A program made the translations under genes and the position numbers. From Candidatus Hermodarchaeota archaeon (GTDB lineage Archaea > Asgardarchaeota > Thorarchaeia > Thorarchaeales > Thorarchaeaceae), in NCBI GenBank assembly GCA_048885865.1, contig JBHLLF010000051.1, positions 1 through 16,774 of the forward strand: a stretch of 16,774 nucleotides of DNA, read 5' to 3'. Below, one piece after another: positions 1 to 15,704 of the stretch. Within the stretch, counting starts at the first letter, position 1, and each line of letters starts with the position of its first letter. The notes beneath the pieces are model-generated. The model did no database searches and was not told where the DNA came from. It saw nothing but the letters and a program-made list of their open reading frames with translations.

Positions 1-861
1 CAGCGTATTGTAGACATCCTAAACTGGGAGGATCCATTAAAAGAGCCGTCCCAAGAGGTCACAGACGTCAATTGGTTGGGTGACATTGTATTCGACAACG
101 TCACCTTTGGATATAACACTAACAATGGAAACAATGAGCATTATGCTCTGAAAAACTTCAATATCACCATACCTGGTGGATCCAGAGTTGCTCTTATCGG
201 AGGACCCGGAGGTGGAAAGAGCACCATTCTGAAGCTCCTCTTGAGGCTTTATGATCCGACAGAGGGGTCAGTCAGTGTTGGTGGTGTAGACCTTAGGAAT
301 GTGACAACCAAGCATGTGCGTGATATGGTTGGATTGGTTGAACAGGACATCTTTTTGTTCAGGATGAGTGTTCGTGACAACATTGCGTTTGGGAGAAAGG
401 ATGCCTCGGATTTGGAGGTCATTGAAGCTGCGCGTCGAGCTCAGGCTGATGAGTTCATCGTGGAAATGGACGGGGGATATGATGCAAAAGTGGGCGAAAG
501 AGGTATGACTCTGAGCGGTGGTCAAAGACAACGACTTGCAATTGCCAGAGCGCTCATTCAGGACCCGAAGATCCTTCTTCTGGATGACTCTGTGAGCGCA
601 GTTGATGCACAGACAGAGTTCTTGATGAGGAAGGCACTGGATGAGGTTATGGTTGGCCGCACGAGCATCACTGTCACTCAACGACTTCGCACACTTCTTG
701 AGTCTGATTTGGTGCTAATAGTGGATAAGGGGCATCTAATTGCAGCTGGTACTCACGACGAGCTCATACGGGATTCAGAGCATTATCAACGCATATTCGA
801 GCGTTTGCCGGGAGCAAGAGCACTGCTTGATAGCATGTCTGTCCAGGGAGGTGCTGCGTGA
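1..861 (+). CDS. ABC exporter subunit 1 (NBD part; 5'-truncated by the window), carrying the degenerate catalytic residues of a TM287/288- or TmrAB-type heterodimer
   Basis: Frame is open from base 1 (QRIVDILNWEDP...), so the ORF-track start at 76 is internal. Walker A GGPGGGKS, signature LSGGQRQR, Walker B ILLLDD (Asp in place of the catalytic Glu), D-loop SAVD, switch TQR (Gln in place of His). Confidence 0.95.
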   Translation, partial: QRIVDILNWEDPLKEPSQEVTDVNWLGDIVFDNVTFGYNTNNGNNEHYALKNFNITIPGGSRVALIGGPGGGKSTILKLLLRLYDPTEGSVSVGGVDLRNVTTKHVRDMVGLVEQDIFLFRMSVRDNIAFGRKDASDLEVIEAARRAQADEFIVEMDGGYDAKVGERGMTLSGGQRQRLAIARALIQDPKILLLDDSVSAVDAQTEFLMRKALDEVMVGRTSITVTQRLRTLLESDLVLIVDKGHLIAAGTHDELIRDSEHYQRIFERLPGARALLDSMSVQGGAA

Positions 862-3005
862 TGGGCATGAGAGGTCATGGAGGTCCAAGAGCATTGGCCC
901 AGGGAAGACAAAAGAGAAGTCGTCCTATCCGCGTGCTACTTGGTCGGATGATTCACTACCTTGGTCGATTCAGACGCATTGTGGCGATTGGTGCTGTTCT
1001 ATCAGTTTTAGCTACAATTGTTTCTGTCTTTGATCCCCTTGTCTTGCAATTAGGTATTGATTCACTTGATTCTTCGGATCCTACTGCCTCATTCGGCTCG
1101 CTCTTGCTTCTGATTGGAATCTATATTGTGCTGAGAATTACGAGTTGGGCACTATCAAGTGGGAATACTTGGATTCTCGCAAATGCACAGGCAGGATTTG
1201 TGCAGAACATCCAGGAGGATGTCTATTCGCATCTCGTGAGAGCTGACCTTTCTTATCACAAGGCTGAGCAAAGCGGCAATGTCACATCAAGGGTCACGTC
1301 AGATACAGTCTCATTGGGGACCGGCATTCAGGTGATAATTAGCTTTGCAAGTCAAGCTCTTTTGCTTGTAGGTACATTCCTGCTTCTACTCTCCACTTCA
1401 CAAGCGTTAGCGCTAACGTCTCTCATTATAGTACCAGGGGTTGTCTTCATAGCGGTCCTGTTCGGAACAGTTGGTCAAAGAATCATGTTGGCATCCCAAA
1501 GAGCAGCGGGTGAGGTTTCTGGTCAGATTGCTGAGAATCTAAGCGGTATTCATGTCGCAAAGGCATTCAATCGAGAAACGGAACTCGCTGAGGAGATGAT
1601 GGAACTAAATCAGAAATCATACAAGTTTGGTGTCCGATTCATGATCTTGATGAGTGCTATGCAACCACTTGTAAGGAGCATCGGTCAGTTCGCAATAGCA
1701 GCTCTATTGTTTGTTGGGGGTACATTAGCTGTAGGTACATTACCTATTCTGACACCTGGAGAAGTATTCCTTGGAATTATGCTTGTCAGTCGTTTCATGT
1801 GGCCACTTCTATCACTCTCCATGATGGCTACACAGGTTCAGGCTTCTCTGGCAGCTATGGATCGCCTTTCCGATGTGCTTGAGTCAAAACGAGCAATCGA
1901 TGATTTCGAATATGCAGTCCCTCTCTCAGAAACTAGTGATGGCATCAGATTTGAGAATGTCACCTTTGAATATGTGAAAGAAACTCCCGTTTTGAGGAAT
2001 GTCAACCTCGCCATTGAACCTGGAGCGACTGTTGCTGTTGTAGGACATACTGGAGCTGGAAAAACAACATTGGCTGCCCTAGTTAACAGGTTCTACGATC
2101 CTCAAATAGGCAACATCCTGATTGGTGACCAGAATCTCAGAGAAATCACTTTAGACTCTCTACATGGCAATGTTGCACTGATACCTCAGGAGCCATATCT
2201 GTTCGATGCGTCCATAATGGACAACATCCGCTATGGTCGACCTGATGCCACAGACGAGGAGATCAAGGACCTATGCGCTTTGATTGGAGCAAATGACTTC
2301 ATTGAGGTCTTGGCTGATGGCTATGACACTTGTATCCTAGAGAATGGAAAGAATCTCAGTGCAGGACAAAGGCAAATGATTACCATTGCTCGAACCATGC
2401 TTGCAGATCCGCGAATTCTCATCCTTGATGAAGCTACAAGTAGACTAGATGCCTATAGTGAGTCGCTTGTACAGGATGCTCAGGCAATGCTGTTTTCAGA
2501 TAGAACCACCGTTGTCATCGCGCATCGACTCACTACTATTGCTAACGCATCTCGAATAATAGTCTTTCAGGATGGCGAAATCATTGAGGATGGAACACAC
2601 GAAGAGCTATTGGCTCTAAATGGTACATTCAAGTCACTCTACGAAACCTACTATGCTCATCAAGGCTTTGAGGAACTATCTGAAGAAACAGCACGAGTTG
2701 CCAGTGAGGAGGTTTCCAAGATAGGTGGGGAATCTGCTCTTGAATCGCCAAAGCCAAGTAGCGGTATGAGTATGATGGGTATGATGGGTGGTGGAGGATC
2801 GCACGATATGCCCGGCGGGCATGGTGGAATGATTGCTGGAGGCATGAGCGACCGGCGTGAAATGCTCAAGAAAATGCTCAAGAACCCAGATGATATTCCG
2901 CCGCAAATGCGTGGTCACTTGATTGAGAGGCTGGAGCAATCTGATGATCCTGAGATGCTGGAGCTCCTACAAAAACTGAAGGCGCTTGAAGGCAAATCTG
3001 AGTAG
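861..3005 (+). CDS. ABC exporter subunit 2 (TMD + NBD) with a Met/Gly-rich C-terminal extension
   Basis: Hydrophobic TMD, Walker A GHTGAGKT, signature LSAGQRQM, Walker B ILILDE, switch AHR. The start overlaps the upstream stop (TGATG at 859-863; alternative GTG at 858). RBS GGAGGTG at 847-853. Confidence 0.95.
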   Translation: MGMRGHGGPRALAQGRQKRSRPIRVLLGRMIHYLGRFRRIVAIGAVLSVLATIVSVFDPLVLQLGIDSLDSSDPTASFGSLLLLIGIYIVLRITSWALSSGNTWILANAQAGFVQNIQEDVYSHLVRADLSYHKAEQSGNVTSRVTSDTVSLGTGIQVIISFASQALLLVGTFLLLLSTSQALALTSLIIVPGVVFIAVLFGTVGQRIMLASQRAAGEVSGQIAENLSGIHVAKAFNRETELAEEMMELNQKSYKFGVRFMILMSAMQPLVRSIGQFAIAALLFVGGTLAVGTLPILTPGEVFLGIMLVSRFMWPLLSLSMMATQVQASLAAMDRLSDVLESKRAIDDFEYAVPLSETSDGIRFENVTFEYVKETPVLRNVNLAIEPGATVAVVGHTGAGKTTLAALVNRFYDPQIGNILIGDQNLREITLDSLHGNVALIPQEPYLFDASIMDNIRYGRPDATDEEIKDLCALIGANDFIEVLADGYDTCILENGKNLSAGQRQMITIARTMLADPRILILDEATSRLDAYSESLVQDAQAMLFSDRTTVVIAHRLTTIANASRIIVFQDGEIIEDGTHEELLALNGTFKSLYETYYAHQGFEELSEETARVASEEVSKIGGESALESPKPSSGMSMMGMMGGGGSHDMPGGHGGMIAGGMSDRREMLKKMLKNPDDIPPQMRGHLIERLEQSDDPEMLELLQKLKALEGKSE

Positions 3006-3017
3006 GAACTCGTCATT

Positions 3018-3791
3018 TCAGAAGAGTTCAATCGATTTAGCTGAGATAAGAGCTGTGCCCAGCACAATATAGGCTTCAGTTCTAACTATCTGCCCTAGTG
3101 GTTCTATCGGGGAGAGCTCTATACAGCACCATAGTACTATCTGCATGGTGAGGACAAGGACTGACAGGAAAGCAAGTCCGAGAGGGCGTGCTAACCTGCC
3201 GCTGCGAAAGACAAGAAGCACGTAGCCCATGGCTAGAGTGATGACTCCCATTCCAATAGCGAGGGGTGCGGTGGTGAACACTTCTACAGGATTTCTGGTT
3301 GGATTTAGAACCATCACGAAAGATGCAAGAATCAGCATAGCAACAGCTGGAATGATCACCATCATTGCCAATAGTCTGTTATCTTTGGTTGATTTGAGAA
3401 CTGAGTTGGAAGCCCGTAGATATCCTAGTACGCCAATAGCCCAGAGTATCAGCCCCGGCATCTGAACTAGACTAACTGTGAAGAGAAATGCTTCGCTCCC
3501 TTCCTGATTCGCCAGAAGGCTTGCTGCGACCTCAGAAATTGCATAAAGAACAAGCCCCAGAGAGAAAAACATATTCATCAGATGAAATCTGTCTTCACGC
3601 CTAAAGTCTTCACGTCCAAAGACCCACAAGCCAATGATGCCCATACTAAAAGCTGAAACTGGAGCTGAAATTAAGCCCAATATAGACAGTATGGATTGAT
3701 TGTTGATAAGCCAGGCAATTTCACTAGCAATTAGAATGGCAAGCGCGCTGACCACGAAAACATATGTCAAATATCTTTCTCGAGATGACAA
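3018..3791 (-). CDS. Hypothetical polytopic membrane protein (~8 TM segments)
   Basis: 257 aa with about eight hydrophobic stretches, short loops and no soluble domain. The TTG start is uncertain. Converges on the ABC gene with a 12-nt gap. Confidence 0.8.
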   Translation of the reverse strand: MSSRERYLTYVFVVSALAILIASEIAWLINNQSILSILGLISAPVSAFSMGIIGLWVFGREDFRREDRFHLMNMFFSLGLVLYAISEVAASLLANQEGSEAFLFTVSLVQMPGLILWAIGVLGYLRASNSVLKSTKDNRLLAMMVIIPAVAMLILASFVMVLNPTRNPVEVFTTAPLAIGMGVITLAMGYVLLVFRSGRLARPLGLAFLSVLVLTMQIVLWCCIELSPIEPLGQIVRTEAYIVLGTALISAKSIELF

Positions 3792-3885
3792 AGGTCAACA
3801 GCTCTCCACGCAAATGCAAATACAAAGTCGTGCTATCCTCGATTTGATTGTTTTCCTTATCAATGAGTTTCCGATGGGTATGCGA

Positions 3886-5082
3886 CTAATTCACCTGAAA
3901 TGACTCCCAATGAATGTCAAAGGCAGTACTTGGAAATTGTCGTTCAATGGATCTTCGAGCACCATTGAGAATCGTGTTTACCGGACTTGATCCCATAAGG
4001 GTGCTCATTCTTCTAGTGAACTCTTGGAAGAGGTCTCTGAATCCTCCACTCAATGTTTCAGGTGTAATGCTCCCCCTGACTGTGGCAGATACTAGAGACG
4101 TCTTGATCTCGACGTCTACTCCTTCCTCCAAGCCAACAAAAGCTAGCCATGGCAGCTCTGAGGTCAGTACATCCCTTGAGCTGAAGAATAGGCTTCTCGC
4201 GGGCTTAATTCCAAGTATCTTTGCGGTCCTGTTGAGTGTTTCCTGTAAAGCGGCAGTATACAGTACTGTGGTAGCTTGAGCTGGGGACACAAGCTCCACT
4301 GCTTTTCTTTGGGCAAGAATCGCAATCTCATCCAGAAATCGCTTAAGGTCACTTGTCTTAACTCTCTCCGCTGCTATTGAGAGTGGGGTCTCCCCATCAA
4401 GTTCTGGGAGAACTCTGGCTGTATCTTCCGAGATTCCAACTACAGTTTCTGTGGGTTGAATTAGACTAGTGGCTTGGTAGATGTCGTCAGGCTTAGCAGA
4501 TGGGGCGAGCGTGATTGCCTTCTCCCAATAAGCCTCAGCAGCCATATTCATTGCCAATTCAACAGGAACTTCCAAGAAGTTTGCTGCCTCTTGCACTGTG
4601 CAGACTTCAGGAATGAGCTTTAGAAATGATACCACATCTGCTGATTGAGTGTAGAACTCCCAATCTCGCTTGAGACGCATGGTTGTCTGGGGTTCAATCA
4701 AGTCGCGCACGAATTCCTCAATCACATTACGTTCAAAGCGAGTATACACTGCTAGGTCGAGATCAACCCATCTAAGTAGGCCAAATTGGTCCTCAAACGC
4801 GTCAATAAGCCTCTTGACCTTCTCTCTGACAATCTCCGTGTCTTCTCTAACTGTGACTGCGCCAAGTGTCCACTCACCAAACTCAACAATTATCTTGCTG
4901 TCTGTTCCTTCAAAAGCCCGAGCCTTTGAGGTGACTGAACGAGTAGCTTCATCAAAGAAAGAGGTCATGGCTACGAGGAAAGAGGATAACAGATCAGCAT
5001 CAAACTCAGGCTCTGCGAAATCATGGTGATACATACAAACACCAGTGTCGCGTCTGATGATGTATACGCTTTCTACCTGCAT
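3886..5082 (-). CDS. Longin-like domain protein with tandem winged-helix-like modules (NPR2/NPRL2-like architecture)
   Basis: N-terminus VYIIRRDTGVCMY...DADLLSSFLVAMTSFFDE...LIDAFEDQF fits the longin pattern common in Asgard archaea. Two wHTH-like segments follow (CTVQEAANFLEVPVELA..., LPELDGETPLSIAAERV...). RBS GGTGAGG lies upstream on the minus strand. Confidence 0.7.
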   Translation of the reverse strand: MQVESVYIIRRDTGVCMYHHDFAEPEFDADLLSSFLVAMTSFFDEATRSVTSKARAFEGTDSKIIVEFGEWTLGAVTVREDTEIVREKVKRLIDAFEDQFGLLRWVDLDLAVYTRFERNVIEEFVRDLIEPQTTMRLKRDWEFYTQSADVVSFLKLIPEVCTVQEAANFLEVPVELAMNMAAEAYWEKAITLAPSAKPDDIYQATSLIQPTETVVGISEDTARVLPELDGETPLSIAAERVKTSDLKRFLDEIAILAQRKAVELVSPAQATTVLYTAALQETLNRTAKILGIKPARSLFFSSRDVLTSELPWLAFVGLEEGVDVEIKTSLVSATVRGSITPETLSGGFRDLFQEFTRRMSTLMGSSPVNTILNGARRSIERQFPSTAFDIHWESFQVN

Positions 5083-5214
5083 CTATCCTTTCCTCACCAT
5101 GTGTCTTGCTTGGCGCGCAAGCAGGCAATCCCTCGGAGCGAACTGACGGACCTATCAGTCACCTTTTGAGGATTCTAGTGAAACTGCTAGAGTCAGTATC
5201 AGTATTCACTAGGA

Positions 5215-5221
5215 CTATAAG
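5215..5221. promoter_or_regulatory. TATA box (CTATAAG) upstream of ZPR1, possibly bidirectional
   Basis: Ends 22 nt before the ZPR1 ATG, which fits a leaderless archaeal transcript. Reads CTTATAG on the minus strand, facing the longin gene. Confidence 0.45.
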
Positions 5222-5243
5222 GATATGAAAGTGGTGTGGATGT

Positions 5244-5855
5244 ATGGCCGATGAAGAGTCCCTTGTCATCACGTGTCCCGCTTGTGAGGAAAGCGAGCTA
5301 GATGTGAACTCGATGCTCTACAGTGTGCCATATTTCAACGAGCTCGCAATGTTCACAATGAAGTGTCCGAATTGCAGCTTCACACACAATGACATCTTCT
5401 CAGCAGAGGAGCGGCCACCAAGTCGATGGACTCTAAGAGTTAACGATGAGGCGCATCTCAGAATTCGGGTTGTCAGGTCGGGCTCAGGCACTATCAGAAT
5501 GCCCGAGTTTGGCATTGATGTGGAACCCGGTCCTGCAGCAGAGTCGTTCATCAGCAATGTTGAAGGAGTCTTGATGCGTACTAGGCCAGTTGTTGAGACC
5601 GCAATCCGATTTGCTGAAAATGAGTCAGAAAGAGAAAGGGGAAAGGAGGTCCTCGAAATGATTGACAAATCGATGAGAAGTGAACTGCCATTCACACTCA
5701 TTCTTGAGGACCCGGTTGGTGTAAGTGGAATCCTGCCTGATGATCTCACTCTGGTGGAACATGTACGCTTGAGTCAGGAAGAGGCTTCCCAGTTGAAGGG
5801 TGCACCTGCCTGGATCGATGTGGCTCGTCAGGACTATACGGAGCGTAAGGGCTAA
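5244..5855 (+). CDS. zpr1: ZPR1-family zinc finger protein (archaeal single-module type)
   Basis: CPAC...CPNC zinc ribbon, VPYF motif, and the conserved RVVRSGSGTIRMPEFGIDVEPGPAAESFISNVEGVL and FTLILEDPxG segments. Confidence 0.93.
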   Translation: MADEESLVITCPACEESELDVNSMLYSVPYFNELAMFTMKCPNCSFTHNDIFSAEERPPSRWTLRVNDEAHLRIRVVRSGSGTIRMPEFGIDVEPGPAAESFISNVEGVLMRTRPVVETAIRFAENESERERGKEVLEMIDKSMRSELPFTLILEDPVGVSGILPDDLTLVEHVRLSQEEASQLKGAPAWIDVARQDYTERKG

Positions 5856-5887
5856 AAGGCCAGCCTAGGCTCTGACCAGTCAACAAT

Positions 5888-5964
5888 GGGCCGATAGATC
5901 AGCCTGGCAGATCGTCTGGTTTGCATCCAGAAGGTCGCGAGTTCAAATCTCGCTCGGTCCACCA
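5888..5964 (+). tRNA. tRNA-Ala (anticodon UGC), intron-less, CCA encoded
   Basis: Acceptor stem GGGCCGA/TCGGTCC with the G3:U70 alanine identity pair. D stem GATC/GATC. Anticodon stem TCTGG/CCAGA with TGC at 5922-5924. T arm GCGAG-TTCAAAT-CTCGC. Discriminator A at 5961, CCA at 5962-5964. Confidence 0.98.
5942..5962 (+). repeat. Left direct repeat (attL-like; tRNA-Ala 3' end)
   Basis: TTCAAATCTCGCTCGGTCCAC matches 11235-11255 at 20/21 nt. Confidence 0.85.
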
Positions 5965-5973
5965 TTTTCTTCT
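5965..5973 (+). terminator. Pyrimidine-rich archaeal terminator after tRNA-Ala
   Basis: TTTTCTTCT immediately follows the CCA end. Confidence 0.45.
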
Positions 5974-5979
5974 CAATGT

Positions 5980-6825
5980 TTAGATTAGGGGCTTCCTACC
6001 GCAAAAGATGAGATACCCTATATCCTCATATTCCTCTCCCTCTTCAACAGTAATGGCATTTCTGACACCGAGGACCTTCATGACCGTTCTCCTAACTGGG
6101 CCATTGATTAACATATGGTAAATCAATTTCAGATAGGCCTTGATACTGGCTTTTCTGTCTCTAGGGCTCTCTAGGACTTCTTGATAATTCTCAATTAGCT
6201 CCTTATTCTCCAGGTCTAGTCCTGCAAATTCAGCTCTCCACTCCTCAAGGCTAAGAAGTGCTGCGTCAGACCCAAGAACCATCTTCAAGGCAGCGTCTAG
6301 TTTCTCTGCAGCCTCACGTGATCCCTGTGGATTTGGGAACATGTCCAGAGTCCCAATAACTCCTCCTGGTTTTGTCACTCGTATATATTCTTGAAGTGCT
6401 CTATGCTTGTCAGGTACCAAGGCTGTGATTGCTACTCCGTAGACAGCATCGAATGTTTCATCATCGAAGGGCATTTCCATGACATTAGCAACTTGGAACT
6501 TCACATTGTTCAAACCCATTTTTGCAGCCCGTTCCCGAGCCTTTCGTATAAGTATCTCAGACAAGTCAATGCCTGTGACTTGACATCCATATTTCTCGGC
6601 AACCATGCAGCTCGTATACCCTGATGCGCATCCAAGCTCGAGAACTTGAAAGCCCGGATCTGCTTGAATATCTATTGAGTCCAACAGCCTATTTGTGCCC
6701 TTCAGGCCTCCAATCATAGGGCTGTTGAAAGCGCCTATGTATCCTAGGAAGTCATAGAATCCTAACTCTGCAACTTCCTTTCTCGACAATCTCTTTACTT
6801 TCAAACTGATAGCATTAGCCTCCAT
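5980..6825 (-). CDS. Class I SAM-dependent methyltransferase
   Basis: Motif I VLELGCASG, followed by VTGIDLS, MPFDDETFDAV and RVTKPGG. Start uncertain: ATG at 6825 overlaps the upstream stop; alternatives are 6858 or TTG at 6804. Confidence 0.92.
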   Translation of the reverse strand: MEANAISLKVKRLSRKEVAELGFYDFLGYIGAFNSPMIGGLKGTNRLLDSIDIQADPGFQVLELGCASGYTSCMVAEKYGCQVTGIDLSEILIRKARERAAKMGLNNVKFQVANVMEMPFDDETFDAVYGVAITALVPDKHRALQEYIRVTKPGGVIGTLDMFPNPQGSREAAEKLDAALKMVLGSDAALLSLEEWRAEFAGLDLENKELIENYQEVLESPRDRKASIKAYLKLIYHMLINGPVRRTVMKVLGVRNAITVEEGEEYEDIGYLIFCGRKPLI

Positions 6826-8359
6826 TTTGCAGTTGTTCTTGAGGGACAAGCCCATCAATCTCGATTCTGCTTTTGCTGAACTCGTTGGACAATTCGGATA
6901 GTGAGATTTCTCTCAAGTCGGAATTCTTGCGCATATGGCTCCTATGAGTCAAAGCAGCTTCTTGATTTGCTAGTAGTCTTCTCTTTCGGAAATATGCCCT
7001 AATTCCCTCCCAGATTTTCCCTAGGAGATATGTGTTCTTTGATTTGATTTGACGCCAGATGACAGATGGGCGCATGTAGAATCTGAGATAGGCCTGATAC
7101 AATATTGTCTTGAGTTTCTTCTCGTTAATGTCTGCAAGCTTCATGACAGGTGCCAGAACAGAATATTCTATCCAAGATTTGGCATTAAGCAACCCTTCCC
7201 TTTTAGCTTGCTCAAATAGCGGTGTTCCAGGATAAGGGGTGCAAATCGTGAATTGTGCGATCTCAGGATTCAGACGACATGCAAGGCCAACCGTTGACAT
7301 TGCTTCTTCTACTGTTTCACCGGGATAGCCAAGTACAAACGAGAAAATTCTCTCTAGTTTAGCATATTTCGCAATTTCATTCGATCTCCAAACCTGCTCG
7401 AGGGTTATTCCCTTTCGCATCAAATCTAAAACTCTTTGACTTCCTGATTCAACACCAATATACACAGAGCGACATCCTGCCTGCTTTAGCCGCTTAGCCA
7501 TTACTGGATTATTGGAGAGGATGTCTGCACGTGCAGAACAAGTCCAACCTAGAGAGTAATTCCGAGTTCGTATTAGCTCGCAAATTTGTTTTACTCTCAA
7601 AGGATCATAACAGAATAGATCATCCAGGAACTCCAACTCATCAATCTTGTATCTCCTAACGAGTAAATCCACTTCTGCAATCACATTTTCAGCAGACCGG
7701 CCCCTCCATTTTTTCCCAGATGATCTCGATGAAGAACAGAAAGTACAACTAAATGGACAACCTCTGCTAGATATCATAGTACCAACGCGAATTGGTCCTT
7801 GCAGATATTGCTTCATATCCATCAAGTCATAGGCTGGAAACGGGAGTGTGTCCAAATCTTCAATCGGGCGAGATAGAGGATTCCGTTTAATCTCCGAACT
7901 CATCCGATATGTAATGCCCTTGACCTTTTCCAATTGATCTGTTCCCATTCTTTCCAACAGATCTAACATGACATATTCGCCCTCACCTCTGACAACAAAA
8001 TCAATTTGAGGCGCATCTCTTAGGATGAGGGCATCAGAGAAAGAGGCATGTGCACCACCCACTACAACTTTGCAATCAAGGTCAGAATCCTTCGCTACTG
8101 CTGCCAATCTATAAACGTCATAGATCGCAGGTGTAGCCTGAGCACTGATTCCAACAACATCCGGTCTAAATCTCGATATCACTTCTGCAAACTCAGCATC
8201 ATTAGTTTGGTGAAGCATTCCATCATGTATTGCTACTTCATGGCTTCCAAACTCTCTGAGGTAACTTGCCAAATATCCAAGGCCAAGTGGAGGTGTAACA
8301 AATCCGAGTGAGTCTCTAATGTCATTGGGAGAATAAGGAATGGTGAATAATACTCTCAT
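6815..8359 (-). CDS. Cobalamin (B12)-binding radical SAM protein (class B methylase/BchE-like; Gmm-like candidate)
   Basis: N-terminal B12-binding domain (PPLGLGYLASYL, VVVGGAHAS, DFVVRGEGE), SRGCPFSCTFC CxxxCxxC motif, IGVESGS, LGYPGET and TPYPGT. RBS GGAGG upstream. Confidence 0.93.
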   Translation of the reverse strand: MRVLFTIPYSPNDIRDSLGFVTPPLGLGYLASYLREFGSHEVAIHDGMLHQTNDAEFAEVISRFRPDVVGISAQATPAIYDVYRLAAVAKDSDLDCKVVVGGAHASFSDALILRDAPQIDFVVRGEGEYVMLDLLERMGTDQLEKVKGITYRMSSEIKRNPLSRPIEDLDTLPFPAYDLMDMKQYLQGPIRVGTMISSRGCPFSCTFCSSSRSSGKKWRGRSAENVIAEVDLLVRRYKIDELEFLDDLFCYDPLRVKQICELIRTRNYSLGWTCSARADILSNNPVMAKRLKQAGCRSVYIGVESGSQRVLDLMRKGITLEQVWRSNEIAKYAKLERIFSFVLGYPGETVEEAMSTVGLACRLNPEIAQFTICTPYPGTPLFEQAKREGLLNAKSWIEYSVLAPVMKLADINEKKLKTILYQAYLRFYMRPSVIWRQIKSKNTYLLGKIWEGIRAYFRKRRLLANQEAALTHRSHMRKNSDLREISLSELSNEFSKSRIEIDGLVPQEQLQNGG

Positions 8360-8371
8360 CCCTTAGCCTCC

Positions 8372-9925
8372 TCAGCTGATGTCAGGTGCAGCTTCTGATT
8401 GTCGCTGTACTAGTAGTTGAAGAGAGGGCTTTTTGGTTCTGATTGGAAGAAGACTTTGCCAGGCATCCCGATTATTGATACACCCAGGATCTGGTCCGAG
8501 ATAATCATTGAAGTAACCTAAAGCCCTTGCGCGGCAACCACCACAGACATTTCTAGACTCACACGATCCGCATGCTCCTTTCAAGAGGTCCTTATTCCGC
8601 AAATCACCTAGAATGTCTGAGTTGGCCCATAGGTCATGGAAGTCGTCATTCAGTATATTACCAACGCGCACCTCAGGAATGTGCGGAAAGAAAACACAGG
8701 GATAGATGTCTCCATTTGGCTCAATAGCTACATAGAACCGACCAGCGCCGCAGCCGCCGATGAACTCCGAGAGATCTTTCATCTGAAAAGGCAAACGAGC
8801 ATTGAAAAAGTGAGTGGGGTACACCTGACTGCCGGCATTGGGGGCGGAAGGAGTACACATTCTAGAGGCTGCCTTCCGGGCAAGGCGACCTAGCTGTGGT
8901 GCTGTGGTCAGCACTTCCAGGCTCTCGGGTTCTTTTGATGCAATCATCTCCAGAATTTTCTGAAGCATGCTCTCTCTTTCATCTGGAGTGAGATCAGAAT
9001 CAAGGATATCAAGCCCTCGACCAGTGGGTACAAAGTTATAGACCATGAACCACTTAGCCCTAAGATTTCTGCCGAGTTTAATGGTGTCGTGGAGTTCGGC
9101 AAGATTGTGATGTGTGGCAGTCATTGCAATCTCAACGAAAAAACCCTCTGCCACACAATTTTTGATTCCCTGAATTGCTTTTTCAAAAGCTCCAGATACA
9201 CCCCGAAAACTATCATGAGTTTGTGGGTTAGCTCCATCAAGGCTAATTTGAACAAACTTCAGCCCTGCTCTCTTGAAGTTCTTCACACGCTCGAGATTTG
9301 AGAAGGTATAACCATTGGTTGCCATCGCGACATATATCCCCCTTCTTGTCGCGCTTTTGATTAGTTCCAAGATGTCTGGCCTTAGAGTAGGCTCGCCTCC
9401 AGAGAATGCCAGGAACACAACTCCTGCGTCTGCTAGCTTGTCTATACATTCAAGAGCGTCCTTCGTGGACATCTCATCTGCAGTTCTTTCTCCAGCGCTT
9501 TCGTAGCAGTGCTTACATCTTAGATTACATGCTTTGGTGATGTTCCATACAACCTGAAAGGGTGACCCAGGAACAAATGGAGTTCTTGCACCAAACTTGA
9601 CCAGACCTGATATTACACTTGACAGCGATCTTCTGAAGATGGGGTCACCCAGGCCACCTATGATTGAATCAAGGTCAGTGCCGAAGGTGTCTGCACCTGC
9701 AGAGATAAACCGGCGGATGAGCTTTGCTGCAAGTCTACATGATAAGCAACCTTTCATTCTTGTTCCTGCAATTAGGTCAAGTGCAACATTGATTCGCCTA
9801 TCACCACATGCTCTACATTTCTTTGTAATCCTGCCTAAAATTGGCCTTACTAAACGGCTCTTTGAAACCGATTCCAATAATTCTGCCCTTGTGACTTCTT
9901 CATTCACACTTTCCGTCAACGACAC
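8372..9925 (-). CDS. Radical SAM/SPASM-domain protein with a Cys-containing N-terminal extension (Gms-like candidate)
   Basis: CNLRCKHC motif, FSGGEP and QISLDG. C-terminal SPASM cysteines GCGAG...YPC...CGSC...CGGCR...DPGC. The ~120-aa N-terminal extension has CRAC and CLSC. GTG start. Confidence 0.93.
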   Translation of the reverse strand: MSLTESVNEEVTRAELLESVSKSRLVRPILGRITKKCRACGDRRINVALDLIAGTRMKGCLSCRLAAKLIRRFISAGADTFGTDLDSIIGGLGDPIFRRSLSSVISGLVKFGARTPFVPGSPFQVVWNITKACNLRCKHCYESAGERTADEMSTKDALECIDKLADAGVVFLAFSGGEPTLRPDILELIKSATRRGIYVAMATNGYTFSNLERVKNFKRAGLKFVQISLDGANPQTHDSFRGVSGAFEKAIQGIKNCVAEGFFVEIAMTATHHNLAELHDTIKLGRNLRAKWFMVYNFVPTGRGLDILDSDLTPDERESMLQKILEMIASKEPESLEVLTTAPQLGRLARKAASRMCTPSAPNAGSQVYPTHFFNARLPFQMKDLSEFIGGCGAGRFYVAIEPNGDIYPCVFFPHIPEVRVGNILNDDFHDLWANSDILGDLRNKDLLKGACGSCESRNVCGGCRARALGYFNDYLGPDPGCINNRDAWQSLLPIRTKKPSLQLLVQRQSEAAPDIS

Positions 9926-9964
9926 CTACTTGGTTTAGTCATCCAAGGCGGGGGCATTGAAACG

Positions 9965-10558
9965 CTAGCCGCTACCATCGGATTCGAGAATGCCCCCTGT
10001 GAAAACATCGAGGAAATTATCAAAGGCCTTCTCATGGTCATCGATGAATTCTTCACCAAAGAGGAGTTCCGCCATCCGGCTGAAAGAAATATAGCTTAGG
10101 AGAATGAGTGAAGCAGCTTTGGGATCTATCTTCCGGACAGTACCTTTCCGAATCTGCTCCTCAAAGTATTCTGTCAAATTCTTCAAGATTCGCTGGGGGA
10201 CTGAAGACAGTGACTCAGCGACCGAGGGTAATCTCAGTCCTTCGGCATACTGCAAAATCAAGAGGTCCTGTTCTTTTCTTGTGAACTTTATCAGATTGTG
10301 TCCAAATGCTCGAAGAGCGTTCTGGACAAACGAGTCTTTATCCAAATCAAAGATAGGTTCTAGGGATGCGAGTGCGTTTGCTTCAGTATTGGCTATGACC
10401 GTTTTCATCAATCTGTCCTTAGTCTTATACTTCCTGAACAATGTGACCTCGTTCACACCTGCGTTCTCTGCAATCCTCTTTGTCGTTGCGGCTTTGTAGC
10501 CCTGCTGCACAAAGAGGTTCTTTGCTGCTTCCAGGACTCTTTCCTCGATTGATTTCAT
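9965..10558 (-). CDS. TetR/AcrR-family transcriptional regulator
   Basis: N-terminal HTH AAKNLFVQQGYKAATTKRIAENAGVNEVTLFRKYKTKDRL; 197 aa, typical length for the family. Confidence 0.95.
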   Translation of the reverse strand: MKSIEERVLEAAKNLFVQQGYKAATTKRIAENAGVNEVTLFRKYKTKDRLMKTVIANTEANALASLEPIFDLDKDSFVQNALRAFGHNLIKFTRKEQDLLILQYAEGLRLPSVAESLSSVPQRILKNLTEYFEEQIRKGTVRKIDPKAASLILLSYISFSRMAELLFGEEFIDDHEKAFDNFLDVFTGGILESDGSG

Positions 10559-10560
10559 TT

Positions 10561-10590
10561 ATGCAAGTAAGTGCTTGCTTGCATTATAAG
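10561..10590 (-). promoter_or_regulatory. TetR operon promoter: TATA box plus 24-bp palindromic operator
   Basis: ATGCAAGTAAGT|GCTTGCTTGCAT (10561-10584; arms match at 10/12) lies between CTTATAA (10590-10584, minus strand) and the tetR ATG at 10558. Confidence 0.82.
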
Positions 10591-10791
10591 TGTGTTTCTT
10601 AGAGCAAGATTCAATCCAGACCGTCCCTTGCTGAGAAAGGTATGACTCAAAAGCACAAAAAGCGACTGTTTAACGCTTCTGCCATGGGTGGCCGTAGATT
10701 CGAAGAACAGCCATCTAAAAAACGATTGCGAAACATCAATCCAAAAATGAAAGCACTTAAGCAGAGATACATGTTAGACTGCCTGATTCAA

Positions 10792-11223
10792 ATGGAACCA
10801 CTGAATCCGTCTGACGAGTCTTCGTTACGTAGTGCTAGACGAATAGGGATTGTCTTTCTCGCTTATGCCATTGGGCTGCCGCTGATCATAATCGCACTGG
10901 GGCCTCAGTTGCCACCTAGCACCGGTCCATACATGCTTTCATGGGTATTGATGGCTCTGATGCCTGTCGAGATCCTTCTCATCTATGTGTTCTATTGGTT
11001 CTTTAGTAAAAGCGGCAGGTCCCAGAATATTATGGGTCCATCAGTACTCATGTATACGGTTGCATCCACTCCATCCATCTATGCGTTCATAATCGGTTTC
11101 ACTGACTCAGCTCTATCGCTCTTAGCAATTCCATTGGGATTAATGTTCTCTCTTGTAGGCCTCTGGCTTGCTTCTATGTTCATATCCAAACTGTGGTCAT
11201 CTTTACAGGAATTCGATCAGTAG
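10792..11223 (+). CDS. Small 4-TM hypothetical membrane protein
   Basis: Four hydrophobic segments. ATG at 10792 (MEPLNPSD) is preferred over 10642 because AAAGCACTTAAG (BRE/TATA-like, 10750-10761) lies 30 nt upstream. The stop is just before the right direct repeat. Confidence 0.72.
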   Translation: MEPLNPSDESSLRSARRIGIVFLAYAIGLPLIIIALGPQLPPSTGPYMLSWVLMALMPVEILLIYVFYWFFSKSGRSQNIMGPSVLMYTVASTPSIYAFIIGFTDSALSLLAIPLGLMFSLVGLWLASMFISKLWSSLQEFDQ

Positions 11224-11234
11224 CGAATTCTGAT

Positions 11235-11255
11235 TTCAAATCTCTCTCGGTCCAC
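11235..11255 (+). repeat. Right direct repeat (attR-like; displaced tRNA-Ala 3' fragment)
   Basis: TTCAAATCTCTCTCGGTCCAC, intergenic. 20/21 identical to 5942-5962, and 23/26 over 11232-11257 vs 5939-5964. Confidence 0.85.
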
Positions 11256-11268
11256 TACTTCATCATTC

Positions 11269-11727
11269 TCAGTAGCCCTTTCTACCGTGGGCATAGGATT
11301 CCAGAACTACTCTCCCTTCACTTGTAGCGCAATCTCTACATGTCACTTGGCCTTCAAAGGCAACTTTGTATCCAACATGCGCTGTACTACTTGATTCTTG
11401 GTTTATAGATACGACACGACCGCAAGAGGTTAGGTATAATCCGACCTCTGTTCCTTCTTTCCTTATTTCTCCCATGTGTGTTGGCCCACCGTCCTTCACA
11501 AGTAGCGGCACTGGCTCTTCGAATCTTTGGAGAAGATCCACTCCTGCAGCTATCATGCTAAGACCTAAAAGAGCGATTAGGGGCACCAATGCGGCTTCAC
11601 GCGGCAGGGGGCCATATTCGCCAGTGTAGGAAAGCAAAGTATACGTTCCATAGCCAAAAAGCAAGAAGACAGGGGTCCCAATGATTGCTAGTCCTTTCCC
11701 AATTAGGCGAACCAAACGTTTCTTCAA
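11269..11727 (-). CDS. Hypothetical protein with two TM helices and a C-terminal putative Zn-binding domain
   Basis: Two hydrophobic helices, then THMG...TSCG...VTCRDC. The TTG start is uncertain. Confidence 0.7.
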   Translation of the reverse strand: MKKRLVRLIGKGLAIIGTPVFLLFGYGTYTLLSYTGEYGPLPREAALVPLIALLGLSMIAAGVDLLQRFEEPVPLLVKDGGPTHMGEIRKEGTEVGLYLTSCGRVVSINQESSSTAHVGYKVAFEGQVTCRDCATSEGRVVLESYAHGRKGY

Positions 11728-11780
11728 GATGACCCTCTGGTTGTATATTGGTCAAATCTTGATATCATGTTTTCGCTAAA

Positions 11781-12905
11781 TCATAGCCTTTCATTTTGCT
11801 TGGGTTGTTGAGTCCAATTCAGAATCACATCAATCACCAGGGGGATATTTCCAACCTGACAATGATTTGAGGCATGCTCCTCAGGACTAAAGAGGCGTGT
11901 CGTCACAGATCGTGCAGTAACTAAACCTTGCTTGGTCCTCTCAAGTTCACCTGGAAAAATCAGATGGTCTGTTGCTCCTGCCAGTAGAAGCACATCTTGT
12001 TCGACCTTGTCTGCGATGCTTATTGTGGAGTACTTATCCAATGAGAAACCCCATTCATGGGGGGTTTCTGCACCAGTGACATCTAGCCACTGGTTGATTA
12101 GAAATCTAGCTGTGACACTGCGACTCATAGCGAATCCTACAACTCTATTATAGAAGTTAGGATGATTCTTCAGGAAACGGGTTAACCAGCTCTCAGGATT
12201 GAGATGTTGGTATACATAGACATCAAGCGCCACCACCTGAGAAATCCTTGGTTCAAATGCTGCAGCGCGCAGAGCAAGAAATCCGCCTAACGAAATGCCA
12301 ATGAGAGTGATATCAGAGAGGTTAAAGTAATCCAGAATTGCTGAGGTTGGTTTTTCCCACTCATGAGTTAGTTTCATGCCATATCTTCTAAGTGTCTTCC
12401 CTTGACCGGGACCTTCAAAGAGAATGACCTCACATCCTCTATTTGCGAATATCTTTGCCATGGTGTAGAATTCTTCTATGAACGAGTCCAATCCTCCGTG
12501 AATGACAACAGTTCGATAGGCATCCGGCGGTGTCAGCCTCAGTACGTGCAGATATCCAAATTCGAATGGCACCTCGGAGATTTTGAGGCTAGGATCCTCG
12601 ATGTTATCATAGAACAGAGTTTGAAATCTCTCATAGAGTTCCAGTTTGTCTGCATCATCACTAAATGTGAAGAATTCAGCTGCACGGTAATAGAACGCCG
12701 CGTTGATCATTCGGTTTTCGAATTCAGCCTTTTCAGCTAGACCTATCATCTCTCGCTTCCAGTCATCGAAATTCTTGATGCTCGCTGCGACACTCTCAAA
12801 GTCCTCAGCACGAGCAAAGCCTAGAGACACCCATCTGTTCATCTGGAAATTGAAGTGCTTGTCCTTGTGAAAGGAGTGATAGCCAATTGGGAGGTCGAAC
12901 TCCAT
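11781..12905 (-). CDS. Alpha/beta-fold serine hydrolase (FrsA / 2,6-dihydroxypseudooxynicotine hydrolase-like family)
   Basis: Nucleophile elbow GISLGG, plus HGGLDSFIEE, FEGPGQG, YYRAAEFF and C-terminal NHCQVGN. TATA-like CTTATA 23 nt upstream on the minus strand. Confidence 0.92.
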   Translation of the reverse strand: MEFDLPIGYHSFHKDKHFNFQMNRWVSLGFARAEDFESVAASIKNFDDWKREMIGLAEKAEFENRMINAAFYYRAAEFFTFSDDADKLELYERFQTLFYDNIEDPSLKISEVPFEFGYLHVLRLTPPDAYRTVVIHGGLDSFIEEFYTMAKIFANRGCEVILFEGPGQGKTLRRYGMKLTHEWEKPTSAILDYFNLSDITLIGISLGGFLALRAAAFEPRISQVVALDVYVYQHLNPESWLTRFLKNHPNFYNRVVGFAMSRSVTARFLINQWLDVTGAETPHEWGFSLDKYSTISIADKVEQDVLLLAGATDHLIFPGELERTKQGLVTARSVTTRLFSPEEHASNHCQVGNIPLVIDVILNWTQQPKQNERL

Positions 12906-13087
12906 GTGTCACAAGAGGAGCAAAAGCGTATAAGAATGACTGGAATCCAATTGCCTGGAGGGCTCCTCATAAAACACCGAGATCTAATGATGATAGGCTC
13001 ACTTGTCCTCTTTGCGGCTTGAGATGCTTCCTCGATAGTAGTCTGTTCGACCACTATGCCTATTCTTGCTCCCAAATGCGACAGTGA
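12887..13087 (+). other. Possible zinc-finger micro-ORF or gene remnant (CPxCG...H...C)
   Basis: CPLCG-x8-L-x2-H-x4-C spacing starting at 13004. There is no convincing in-frame start codon, and the TTG at 12887 overlaps the hydrolase gene. Confidence 0.3.
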
Positions 13088-13337
13088 TGCCTGCTAGAAA
13101 AATAGTCGTGATAATGATTGACAACAAGACTAGTACTTCGATCATCCCACTCTCATGATATTATTCGAATTTGAGCTAATAAACAATTGGCCTTTTTTTC
13201 AATCATCTGTCATAAAGCAATCCTTAAGAGGGGTGGTTCTTGCCTCCGGGTTTAACTCACACAGGGAACTAGGCTGTTGACTTTCCATCAATTGAAGGAG
13301 GACTTGGCGCCTAGATCAATCAGTGGTGATACACATT

Positions 13338-15704
13338 ATGCAATTATTCGAGACATTCAACGGTATGGTCTTAATCGAGCAGATCATGATCTTGACGGTC
13401 ATTCTAGCTGCCATAGCCAGTCTCGTGTATGCCTGGTGGCTCAGAAAAGGCGTCTTGGAATTGCCCAAAGGTACTGAGCAAATGCAGAAGGTGTGGAACG
13501 GAATCAGGGAAGGTGCTTTGTCTTATCTCCATAGACAACTGAGGACGATTTTACCAATATTGGTTGTATTGTCAGTCCTTCTATTCTTCACCGTTTATAT
13601 TACCACACCAGAGCGAGGAACGGATATTCTATTTGGTCATACTCCAGACCAGGGACGACTTATTGTAGGAATCGGCAGGTCGTTGGCTTTTATCTTGGGT
13701 GCTAGTTTTTCGCTCATAGTTGGACAGCTCGGGATGAGGATCGCTGTTGAGTCCAACATCCGTGTTGCACAGGCTACACGTGAAGGTGAAGACCGTTACA
13801 ATCGTGCATTGACAATCTCCTATCGTGGCGGTACCTTTACAGGAATGCTGACTGACGGACTGGGTCTGATGGGAGGAACTATCATATTCATTATCTATGG
13901 AATTGCAGCACCTGATGCACTCCTGGGATTTGGTTTGGGAGGCACTCTGCTTGCTCTATTCATGAGAGTTGGAGGCGGAATCTATACCAAGGCCGCTGAT
14001 GTTGGTGCTGACCTCGTAGGCAAAGTTGAGCAAGGCTTACCAGAAGATGATCCACGAAACGCTGCAGTTGTTGCCGATCTTGTAGGTGACAATGTTGGTG
14101 ACTGTGCCGGAATGGCGGCGGACATTTTCGAGTCATATGAAGTCACCATCGTTTCCGCTCTTATTCTGGCTATAGTGCTTTACATTGACAATCCTGCGCT
14201 CCTTGTCTTTCCATTCGCTGTTGTGGTCTTTCCACTTTTTGTGAGGGCAATTGGAGTTATCTCTTCCATGATTGGCACCTTCATGGTCCCAGTCTGGCCA
14301 AGGATTCTTAGGAAGTCTGCAGTCTACGCAGAAAAAGCAATGTTTCTATCATATGAGGCATCCAGCGCTTTTACAATCATACTATCGATGACGCTTTCAT
14401 GGTTCTATGTTGGAGATCTTAGATTCGGAATACTCATTGCAGTTGGTGTCATGCTGGCTGTATCATTCAATCCAATCACGAGTTATTTCACATCGCTAAA
14501 GAAGCCTCCAGTGCAGGAGATCGTAAAGTCAGCCGACACTGGCTATGCAACATTCATACTTTCTGGCCTTGTTGCTGGATATGAGTCGACTGTTGCTGCT
14601 CTTGTGGTAATTGTTGCCACATTTGGAATCTCAGCAGTTTTGTTCTTGGCTCCAGTTGCAGCTGCGGTGCCATGGTTCATAGATGGCATCTTTGGCAATC
14701 TCTGGACACTCTACGGCATTGCCCTGATTGGTATCGGAATGCTATCACATACTGGAAACAACGTGGCGATGGACTCCTATGGTCCTATCAGTGACAATGC
14801 AGCTGGCATAGGCGAACTCTCTCCTGGGGACTTTGACGATGACGCAATGAGGACAATGGCTGAGCTCGATGCCGTTGGGAACACAACCAAGGCCATCACG
14901 AAAGGTGTTGCAATAGCCTCCGCAGTTATTGCTGCAGTAAGCCTCTTTGACAGCTTCGTTGTTGTTGCTGGAATCGAACATCTTCTCATGGACGACCCCC
15001 TAGTGTTCTCTGGTCTGCTTCTAGGTGCCGCTCTCCCATGGCTCTTCTCAGCCTTGAACATCAAGGCAGTTACTCGTGCCGCTGGTGAGATGGTCATGGA
15101 AGTGCGCAGACAGTTCAGGATACCTGGAATATTGGAGGGTACCAAGAAGCCTGACTATGATCGAGCGGTTGACATTTCTACAACTGCAGCTCAGAAGGAA
15201 CTGATTTCCCTTGTGGCTCTCACTGTTTCCATACCTATCATGGTTGGAATTCTATTCGGTGTGAGCGCTCTTGGAGGGTTCCTAGGTGGCATCATTGTTT
15301 CTGGTCAACTCCTGGCTGTGTTCATGTCGAATTCAGGTGGTGCATGGGACAACGCGAAGAAAAGCATCGAAGATGAACCATGCAGCATTGAGGGCAACAC
15401 TGGCAAAGGCTCTGAGAGGCACAAGTGCGGAGTTGTAGGCGACACAATCGGTGACCCATTGAAGGACACAGCAGGCCCCGCACTGAATCCAATGATCAAG
15501 GTAGTCAATCTCCTTGCATTGATTCTTGCTCCACTGCTGGTTCAGTTCAGTTTTGGAGCAGATTCCACAACCAATCTGATTCTTGTTGCAGTACTCTTCG
15601 CGCTGTTTCTGATGACGGTCTGGGCTATCCGCAAGAGTACCAAGCCAGCTGACTTCGGCATGGGTACTCCCGTCGAGGCTACTGCCGAAGCACAAAATGT
15701 GTAA
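13338..15704 (+). CDS. hppA: Membrane-bound proton-translocating pyrophosphatase, predicted K+-independent
   Basis: GGGIYTKAADVGADLVGKVE, EDDPRN, GDNVGD, GPISDNA, GGAWDNAKK and GDTIGDPLKDTAGP motifs. GNTTKAITKG has Lys at the K+-dependence position. ATG at 13338 with RBS GGTGAT at 13325-13330 is preferred over GTG at 13323. Confidence 0.97.
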   Translation: MQLFETFNGMVLIEQIMILTVILAAIASLVYAWWLRKGVLELPKGTEQMQKVWNGIREGALSYLHRQLRTILPILVVLSVLLFFTVYITTPERGTDILFGHTPDQGRLIVGIGRSLAFILGASFSLIVGQLGMRIAVESNIRVAQATREGEDRYNRALTISYRGGTFTGMLTDGLGLMGGTIIFIIYGIAAPDALLGFGLGGTLLALFMRVGGGIYTKAADVGADLVGKVEQGLPEDDPRNAAVVADLVGDNVGDCAGMAADIFESYEVTIVSALILAIVLYIDNPALLVFPFAVVVFPLFVRAIGVISSMIGTFMVPVWPRILRKSAVYAEKAMFLSYEASSAFTIILSMTLSWFYVGDLRFGILIAVGVMLAVSFNPITSYFTSLKKPPVQEIVKSADTGYATFILSGLVAGYESTVAALVVIVATFGISAVLFLAPVAAAVPWFIDGIFGNLWTLYGIALIGIGMLSHTGNNVAMDSYGPISDNAAGIGELSPGDFDDDAMRTMAELDAVGNTTKAITKGVAIASAVIAAVSLFDSFVVVAGIEHLLMDDPLVFSGLLLGAALPWLFSALNIKAVTRAAGEMVMEVRRQFRIPGILEGTKKPDYDRAVDISTTAAQKELISLVALTVSIPIMVGILFGVSALGGFLGGIIVSGQLLAVFMSNSGGAWDNAKKSIEDEPCSIEGNTGKGSERHKCGVVGDTIGDPLKDTAGPALNPMIKVVNLLALILAPLLVQFSFGADSTTNLILVAVLFALFLMTVWAIRKSTKPADFGMGTPVEATAEAQNV

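Follow-up and report, generated by a model that had tools for sequence, protein, structure and literature searches.

Displaced tRNA-Ala tails at an insertion hotspot that holds a radical SAM operon in one Thorarchaeota genus

Introduction

What placed a small, TetR-regulated radical SAM operon between an intact tRNA-Ala gene and a second, displaced copy of that gene's 3' end? The question is raised by a 16,774-nt stretch of DNA (the window), contig C51 (JBHLLF010000051.1) of a 3.58-Mb metagenome-assembled genome of Candidatus Hermodarchaeota archaeon (Thorarchaeaceae) that is 87% complete and is labelled G000 in the comparisons below. An earlier note, made from the window alone, had described the operon as the cargo of a 5.3-kb island without integrase, bounded by the two repeats and brought in by site-specific integration. 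The same locus in related genomes leads to a different answer, in which the tRNA-Ala gene heads an insertion hotspot, the displaced 3' end is older than the position of the operon beside it, and the operon itself is native to the genus.

Results

The repeat pair and the tRNA-Ala gene

5888-5964, + strand: tRNA-Ala(TGC) gene (ARAGORN) with encoded CCA, the sole tRNA call in the window; array head and insertion target
5939-5967, + strand: repeat copy 1, the functional tRNA 3' end from T loop to CCA, plus trailer
11232-11260, + strand: repeat copy 2 (the scar), a displaced old tRNA-Ala 3' end

The core of the repeat, TTCAAATCTCGCTCGGTCCAC at 5942-5962, begins in the T loop of the tRNA, takes in the 3' half of the T stem and that of the acceptor stem, ends at the first C of CCA, and recurs on the + strand at 11235-11255 with 20 of 21 positions identical, the mismatch being a G to T change in the T stem. 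Extended outwards, the similarity covers 25 of 29 positions (5939-5967 against 11232-11260) at a spacing of 5293 bp. Copy 2 sits in the 45-nt gap between the stop codons of two convergent genes, h193 (11223) and h152 (11269), and is a displaced tRNA-Ala 3' end. The repeat is a real one and no product of chance: two matches turned up in none of 200 dinucleotide-preserving shuffles. It is not scattered at random through the genome either: a search for further copies of the 21-mer, which the earlier note had suggested, finds the remaining near-matches at two other tRNA-Ala tails and in their own downstream arrays. Nor is it an assembly artefact, because orthologous, more decayed copies stand at the same gene junction in three independent assemblies (G015, G010 and L047). 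Only the small size of the repeat speaks for chance similarity or an artefact, an explanation which the shuffles and the three assemblies have already refuted and to which we attach practically no probability. The tail duplication in the same orientation, as the earlier note had reported it, is thus borne out.

The exons of tRNA-Ala(TGC) are identical in six genomes, and the trailer directly after CCA varies according to which module adjoins it. G015 and G001 (L009:2644-2750 and L011:1457-1563) have a 30-nt intron after the anticodon, which is absent from G000, the sister of G015, as well as from G010, L047 and G014; this patchy distribution would fit swapping of the tRNA 3' half.

The same locus in relatives

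The genes between and around the repeats, for which all open reading frames (ORFs) of the island were scanned against Pfam, are the following.

5244-5855, + strand: zpr1 (jr-ZPR1 and Zn_ribbon_ZPR1), conserved left flank of the hotspot
5980-6858, - strand: class I SAM methyltransferase (MT; Methyltransf_25/31/11), the module nearest the tRNA
6815-8359, - strand: B12-binding (class B) radical SAM enzyme (B12; B12-binding and Radical_SAM)
8372-9925, - strand: radical SAM/SPASM enzyme (rSAM; Radical_SAM and SPASM)
9965-10558, - strand: TetR-family regulator (TetR_N and TetR_C_7), the first gene of the operon
10642-11223, + strand: h193, predicted multi-pass membrane protein with hydrophobic stretches and no Pfam match, a separate module
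11269-11727, - strand: h152, small membrane protein with a Cys-rich C-terminal domain, no family match
11781-12905, - strand: alpha/beta hydrolase (Abhydrolase_1), a variable gene found only in G000, G015 and L047
13323-15704, + strand: H+-pyrophosphatase (PPase; H_PPase), conserved right flank of the hotspot

Upstream of the tRNA stand zpr1 and two genes without assignment; the earlier note had read one of the two as longin-like. The zpr1 gene adjoins tRNA-Ala(TGC) in every member of the genus in which it was found, and the PPase gene follows 1.5-7.5 kb downstream of it. By ZPR1 identity the relatives fall into clade A (82-96%; G000, G015, G010, G002, G014, G001 and the metagenome contigs L047 and L048, with the ZPR1 of L047 88% identical to that of the window) and clade B (66-71%; G004, G005, G006, G011 and G012). 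Behind the tRNA they carry:

G000 and G015: MT-B12-rSAM-TetR, h193, scar, h152, hydrolase, PPase
G010: h193, B12-rSAM-TetR, scar, h152-like gene, PPase
L047: h193, scar, h152-like gene, hydrolase, PPase, without the operon
G001: B12-rSAM and onwards until the contig end
G002: an orphan gene of 533 codons, a 12-nt tail remnant, then B12-rSAM and onwards
G014: h152-like gene, a 43-nt exact tail copy, a second h152-like gene and onwards
G014, another contig: a 24-nt exact tail copy 1.26 kb upstream of the PPase gene
Clade B: other genes over 1.4-2.5 kb (a membrane protein and, in some, SnoaL and PALP), then PPase

The clade B locus holds neither the operon nor h193, h152 or the scar. Since the contents of the interval differ in this way among relatives, the stretch from zpr1-tRNA-Ala to the PPase gene is a hotspot of gene turnover, and indeed an insertion hotspot, in one Thorarchaeota genus.

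The scar itself stands at the h193/h152 junction in G000 (GATTTCAAATCTCTCTCGGTCCACTACTTCATCATTCTCAG), G015 (GGTTCAACTCTCATTCGGGGCATCACTTCTTCATTCTTAG) and L047 (GGTTGTAGCTTCGCTCGGTACACCATTTCTTCATTCTCAA) and in front of the h152-like gene in G010 (GGTCAAATCACGCTCGGTCCGTCAC); the orthologous scars match the tail at 15 of 21 positions in G015, 15 of 21 in L047 and 17 of 18 in G010. All four represent one old tRNA tail with its trailer, unequally decayed. The presence of orthologous scars in G015, G010 and L047 places the scar before the split of these lineages; the earlier note had supposed some age from the mismatches. In L047, moreover, the scar occurs without the operon, so the repeat is not a trace of the operon's insertion, and the scar, as the product of an older event, precedes the arrival of the operon at its present position. 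The notion of a 5.3-kb island bounded by repeats accordingly survives in part: the locus is a variable insertion site without integrase, but one element that came with the operon is not supported. The repeats do not delimit a cargo that is missing from an empty site, since L047 keeps both h193 and the scar, and G010, G001 and G002 partition the interval otherwise. The operon is not syntenic across the genus, and the synteny that the earlier note had named as refuting its view is thus absent.

A composite interval

The 5.3-kb interval is a composite of a TetR/radical SAM core, a later MT and h193, parts that the relatives hold in other combinations, partly separated by further tRNA-tail remnants. 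In G001 the tRNA continues through CCATTTTCTTATCCAGAGGTAATCTTACC and runs into the stop of the B12 gene. The junction in G002 aligns base for base with that of G001, except that only (A)CTCGGTCCACCA of the tail is left as the 12-nt remnant, and a 1.8-kb one-gene module, the 533-codon gene, now lies between it and the intact tRNA. In G010 h193 and the end of B12 are separated by a decayed tail (19 of 28 positions). The first module of G014 consists of one h152-like gene, flanked by the tRNA and by the 43-nt exact copy, which begins at the anticodon. The recurring order is an intact tRNA, the newest module, a displaced tail and an older module. At other module junctions (operon/h193, hydrolase/PPase and others) local alignment against shuffles gave no significant tail remnants; this test is insensitive, as a later alignment that included the trailer revealed the remnant in G010.

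The MT gene is present only in G000 and G015. Beyond G015, the homologue closest to it shares 53% identity and occupies another place in the genomes concerned, and MT is the latest addition to the interval. When MT was inserted, the final ~35 codons of B12 were replaced, which remodelled the C-terminus of the B12 enzyme and created an overlap of two reading frames. The MTs behind other tRNA-Ala tails (C54 and C61) were considered as kin of the window MT and are not close relatives. The last ~35 residues of the B12 enzyme in G000 and G015 are wholly unlike those in G010, G001 and G002 (window 6815-6950), and the 3' end of the B12 gene overlaps the start of MT in both genomes.

Homologues of h193 start at residue ~45-49 of the annotated frame, directly behind the tRNA in G010, L047 and L048, and the true start of h193 is probably near 10786, which would leave ~230 nt as a divergent TetR/h193 promoter region. 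The first ~48 codons of the h193 ORF (10642-10785) are without counterpart in these homologues. Members of the h152 family (39-83% identical) are found right behind the tRNA or a tail copy in G015, L047, G010 and, twice, in G014. They always read towards the tail, and their alleles are only 39-83% identical among close relatives. The family shows two predicted N-terminal membrane helices and a conserved C-terminal GLYLTSCG..INQES..TAHVGY..CRDC (window, L009, L010, L017 twice and L047). Searches of NCBIfam, PHROGs and Pfam gave nothing informative for h152, h193, h257, the G002 orphan X533, clade B h220/h226 and several array ORFs, and X533 has no family match and no obvious nuclease motif.

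Origin of the operon

The operon occurs once in G000. In clade B its TetR, rSAM and B12 genes (66%, 65-67% and 51% amino acid identity, respectively) lie between orthologues of the G000 genes at C4:110257-112227 and C4:112654-113130, which in G000 are 427 nt apart; this spacing means that the clade B site of the operon is empty in G000. Homologues of the rSAM/SPASM enzyme number more than 3000 and extend to other Asgard archaea, Nitrososphaerales and Bathyarchaeia. In a tree of 64 sequences clade A is sister to clade B with an SH-aLRT of 98, and both fall inside a Thorarchaeota-dominated clade, apart from the sequences of Odinarchaeia, Nitrososphaerales and Bathyarchaeia. The contrasts in GC content and tetranucleotides that the earlier note had proposed to look for are absent, with a GC of 0.450 against 0.463 for the genome and a tetranucleotide distance at the median of random windows. 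The grouping of the cargo with that of the other subclade, together with the lack of a contrast in composition, argues for relocation within the genus and not for import from afar. The operon is thus native to the genus and changes its place there, and a foreign origin is contradicted by a tree that matches the genus grouping.

The B12 enzyme is 80-92% identical within clade A and 50-51% between clades A and B, against 56-58% between clade B and another genus, so that clade A is somewhat over-diverged; the extra divergence fits faster evolution after a move. A scan of the genome collection with this enzyme found only the close relatives already known. In two other genera (L050 and L052) the order is rSAM-SPASM, B12-rSAM, TetR, with the regulator last, in unrelated neighbourhoods, and in every lineage examined the TetR regulator accompanies the two radical SAM genes. 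Neither the clade B copies of the operon nor those outside the genus have flanking repeats or tRNAs nearby. The neighbourhoods in L050 and L052 are rich in accessory genes of the type found in the arrays described below (beta-lactamase-fold, abhydrolase, amidohydrolase, MarR and SnoaL).

Tail arrays elsewhere in the genome and the genus

C54 (locus L021), 135-13615: the tail of a truncated tRNA-Ala gene and five co-oriented copies at 1636, 2264, 4310, 8205 and 13595
C9, 26161-27480: tRNA-Gly(GCC) locus
C23, 2053-2780: tRNA-Arg(TCG) locus
C28, 30077-31070: tRNA-Cys locus
C23, 5332-16800: tRNA-Tyr locus

Contig C54 of G000 begins inside another tRNA-Ala gene, the start of which is cut off by the contig end. 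Its modules of 0.6-5.4 kb encode an amidohydrolase, DUF4760, MarR, methyltransferase, flavodoxin, LVIVD, SBP5, beta-lactamase-fold and luciferase-like oxidoreductase proteins, accessory cargo only, with no mobility gene in the array. C54 had been considered as an assembly duplicate of C9; there is no nucleotide match between the starts of the two contigs, and they are not duplicates. The first gene after a copy in C54 usually reads towards the copy, with its stop 21-25 nt away. Comparison with the sister species catches the modules in different arrangements: G000 has LVIVD, a copy and SBP5, whereas G015 has LVIVD, a copy and GNAT on one contig and the luciferase-like gene, a copy and SBP5 on another. 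The modules of the two genomes are 95% identical in nucleotide sequence, and homology switches exactly at the 21-nt copy. A breakpoint in module order between sister species thus lies exactly at a tRNA-tail copy.

Other tRNA genes of G000 show the same arrangement on a smaller scale. The genes for tRNA-Gly(GCC), tRNA-Arg(TCG) and tRNA-Cys are each followed by one module of ~0.65-1.2 kb that is closed by a copy of their own tail; a single gene makes up the Gly module (for a TPR protein) and the Cys module (for an ATC-hydrolase-like protein), and an unassigned 174-amino-acid ORF lies behind Arg. Downstream of tRNA-Tyr, tail copies at 3.2 and 11.4 kb bracket metabolic genes and a TFB paralogue. 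The relatives G015, G014 and G001 have arrays of three to six tail copies with cargo genes only.

The process is not specific to tRNA genes, as is evident from C14 (2127-17700), where a protein-coding gene supplies the tail: the final ~66 nt (ending in IFGPDYLPYRQEKQM and the stop) of a 415-codon ORF with its end at 3374 recur seven times downstream on the same strand, without long ORFs, in a cassette-like array. Smaller arrays of the protein-gene-tail type were seen on C106, C42, C20 and C13.

Search for a recombining enzyme

The interval between tRNA and scar contains no integrase or other mobility gene, and the earlier note's description of an island without integrase holds for the whole 87%-complete assembly with respect to PF00589 and PF16795. 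A profile search of G000 with PF00589, PF16795, PF00239, PF01548, PF01867 and PF14528 gave no match, and PF07282 (TnpB-type) gave three sub-threshold matches only, on other contigs of G000. No nuclease-like gene was found in the modules examined at the locus or in the arrays of G015, G014 and G001. Across the family, 23 of 61 genomes contain PF00589; in the genus the count is 2 of 10. From its absence in G000 and its rarity among genus members, a conserved XerA-type recombinase seems to be missing in the genus or too divergent to detect. Single-stranded DNA folds of two tail copies, on both strands, revealed no attC-like hairpins (z-scores of -0.4 to -1.3).

Possible function of the cargo

PDB and NCBIfam searches with the radical SAM pair gave matches at superfamily level only, and these below threshold. 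The pairing of the genes, in which a SPASM/Twitch-type radical SAM gene adjoins a B12-binding radical SAM gene, recalls gms-gmm, a pair for cross-linking and methylation of glycerol monoalkyl glycerol tetraether (GMGT) lipids that has been reported in Asgard archaea (PMC11214058). By this analogy of gene pairing the B12 radical SAM enzyme is possibly Gmm-like and the rSAM/SPASM enzyme Gms-like, and the operon may perhaps serve a GMGT-type lipid modification. Here a TetR regulator and a class I methyltransferase accompany the pair in addition.

Discussion

Any explanation of this locus has to accommodate the scar and its age, the modularity of the interval, the relocation of the operon, the lack of a local recombinase and the exchange of modules at tail copies elsewhere in the genome. 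We consider it probable that these features result from recurrent, tail-replacing insertion at tRNA-Ala(TGC), by which separately acquired modules were stacked behind the gene. DNA would insert at the tRNA's 3' end and bring a replacement tail, leaving the tRNA intact and pushing the old tail downstream. New modules would enter next to the tRNA, older ones would move outward, and the old tails would decay or be deleted. The operon moved into the hotspot from a different site on the chromosome or by exchange with one. We infer that the joining enzyme would have its gene elsewhere and possibly belong to an unknown family; it would act on the tails of tRNA genes and apparently, in this genome, on those of other genes.

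Several results weigh against this explanation. In the 87%-complete assembly of G000 no match was found to a tyrosine (PF00589, PF16795) or serine recombinase, Cas1, IS110 or LAGLIDADG_3; six PF00589 loci examined in the family have no tRNA within 10 kb; and the 23-nt tail sequence has no match in IMG/VR. The tail copies vary in length from 12 to 43 nt (12, 21, 24 and 43), mostly starting at the T loop, which fits one fixed cut by an integrase less well and makes short-homology recombination possible. In G000 and G015 the TetR promoter region passes into h193 with no remnant of a tail, so that one or more of the steps either was followed by a deletion or did not involve a tail, and the entry of MT, which took the place of part of the 3' end of B12, was no clean insertion of a cassette. 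Later deletions or events without a tail must be assumed at both the operon/h193 and the MT/B12 junctions.

The picture that first suggests itself, an intact tRNA with a co-oriented copy of 20 in 21 positions, is the classical one of attL and attR, and it would make the 5.3 kb a single integrative element placed by a tRNA-targeting tyrosine integrase that was later lost, or a cassette mobilised whole. G015 has the same gene order, and the T loop, at which the copy here starts, is reportedly a known crossover sublocation in tRNA genes, within the sublocation scheme for tyrosine-integrase islands that Williams is said to have set out in 2002. We nevertheless disfavour a single element and hold it to be very unlikely. 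L047 has the scar and h193 and no operon; in G010 the operon and h193 stand in the opposite order, separated by a second decayed tail; in G001 and G002 a tail abuts the B12 end, and there is no MT, a gene confined to G000 and G015; no integrase or fragment of one was found in island or genome; and the phylogeny of the cargo matches the genus grouping, with native composition. At the other extreme stands an explanation that dispenses with dedicated machinery altogether and sees in the locus a permissive region, in which ordinary homologous recombination between strains through the conserved flanks and illegitimate recombination exchange genes beside a tail copy that is the inert relic of a single old event. 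The failure to find a recombinase in the assembly, the operon/h193 junction of G000 without a tail copy, the MT junction inside a gene, the native composition, the variable lengths of the copies and the different rates of scar decay in G000, G015 and L047, as neutral DNA would show them, all speak for it. It is harder to reconcile with the co-oriented tail copies behind several tRNAs of G000, including four with copies of their own, and on several array contigs of relatives, or with differences in module order between sister species that break exactly at the 21-nt copy; and the placing of new modules directly behind the intact tRNA with the displaced tail after them (G002, G010 and G014) is unlike random insertions and deletions. 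It is therefore unlikely, if still deserving some weight.

A selfish nuclease, homing or RNA-guided, could also have cut the tail, repair then copying in a donor with a resistant tail and its passengers and leaving the old tail downstream. The C14 array on a protein-gene tail argues for a mechanism that is independent of tRNA sequence, remnants of 12, 21, 24 and 43 nt vary in length, and recombinase families were not found. Yet the assembly contains no LAGLIDADG_3, Cas1 or above-cut-off TnpB-type match, nothing like a nuclease gene was found in the modules examined at the locus or in the arrays of G015, G014 and G001, and the identity of the tRNA exons in six genomes means that no resistant allele is visible at the locus; this explanation appears quite improbable. 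Returning to tail-replacing insertion, a dedicated machinery acting in trans is weakly favoured over nuclease-cut repair and short-homology recombination, because the insertions occurred repeatedly and precisely at gene tails. In its most far-reaching form this would be a gene-capture system of Thorarchaeota that uses the 3' ends of essential genes, both tRNA genes and some protein genes, as attachment sites and inserts and reshuffles cassette-sized modules through an enzyme encoded outside the arrays and of an unrecognised family, an integron analogue of which the regulated lipid-modifying operon would be one cassette; we put this forward tentatively, as a possibility that carries appreciable weight and falls short of an even chance.

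The closest known systems are the accretion of tRNA-targeted islands and the tycheposon islands. Partial tRNA fragments in tRNA-gene islands have been discussed (PMC9897764). As in islands with tandem accretion, the tRNA here stays intact at the head, co-oriented 3' copies (from the T or anticodon loop to CCA) follow downstream, and the newest insert lies beside the tRNA with older ones further out. The differences are that no integrase or remnant was found here in any module or in the assembly, that the modules are cassette-sized (0.5-5 kb, one to six cargo genes) and arrays also form on a protein-gene tail, and that composition and phylogeny of the cargo are not foreign and the repeats do not delimit empty-site DNA. 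In the tycheposon islands of Prochlorococcus, successive integrations beside tRNA genes push older elements inward (bioRxiv 10.1101/2020.12.28.424599); partial tRNAs likewise separate the inserts and lie scattered as remnants, and the cargo is metabolic or adaptive. Tycheposons, in contrast, carry tyrosine recombinases and replication modules and leave fragmented integrases, none of which was found here, and the present host is an Asgard archaeon. Integrons (PMC4889954) share with these arrays the rows of small, swappable modules between short repeats and an order that differs in close relatives and breaks at the repeats. Such repeat-bounded reshuffling is met in the C54 array against G015, with only a partial picture at the window's own locus. 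However, no IntI was found at the array head, the repeats consist of tRNA tails without an attC-like hairpin, and a module may contain several genes that face both ways and bring its own regulator and promoter, like the TetR operon. Elements of the SSV type, whose 'suicidal' integrase has its att site inside the integrase gene so that int(N) and int(C) flank the element (PMC7253208; reviewed in PMC8371274), are archaeal, integrate into the 3' part of tRNA genes, become trapped and leave tRNA-fragment repeats, but in the window both copies are intergenic or within the tRNA and the flanking ORFs are MT and a membrane protein. What sets the present arrays apart from the known systems is that no integrase was found, that their modules are cassette-sized and that they extend to protein-gene tails.

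In annotation, orphan tRNA tails should be taken as signs of hotspots of gene flux and not as boundaries of the genes between them. No description of a route of this kind for collecting accessory genes was found in the literature searched. If a dedicated machinery is at work, Asgard archaea would collect and exchange accessory genes without a visible integrase, at the tails of protein genes as well, which bears on how Asgard genomes acquire genes. A regulated operon that modifies membrane lipids could then be a movable accessory module, a point of consequence wherever GMGTs and their methylated forms serve as taxonomic or environmental markers. Should the gene-capture interpretation prove true, a functional analogue of the integron would exist in an archaeal lineage related to eukaryotes.

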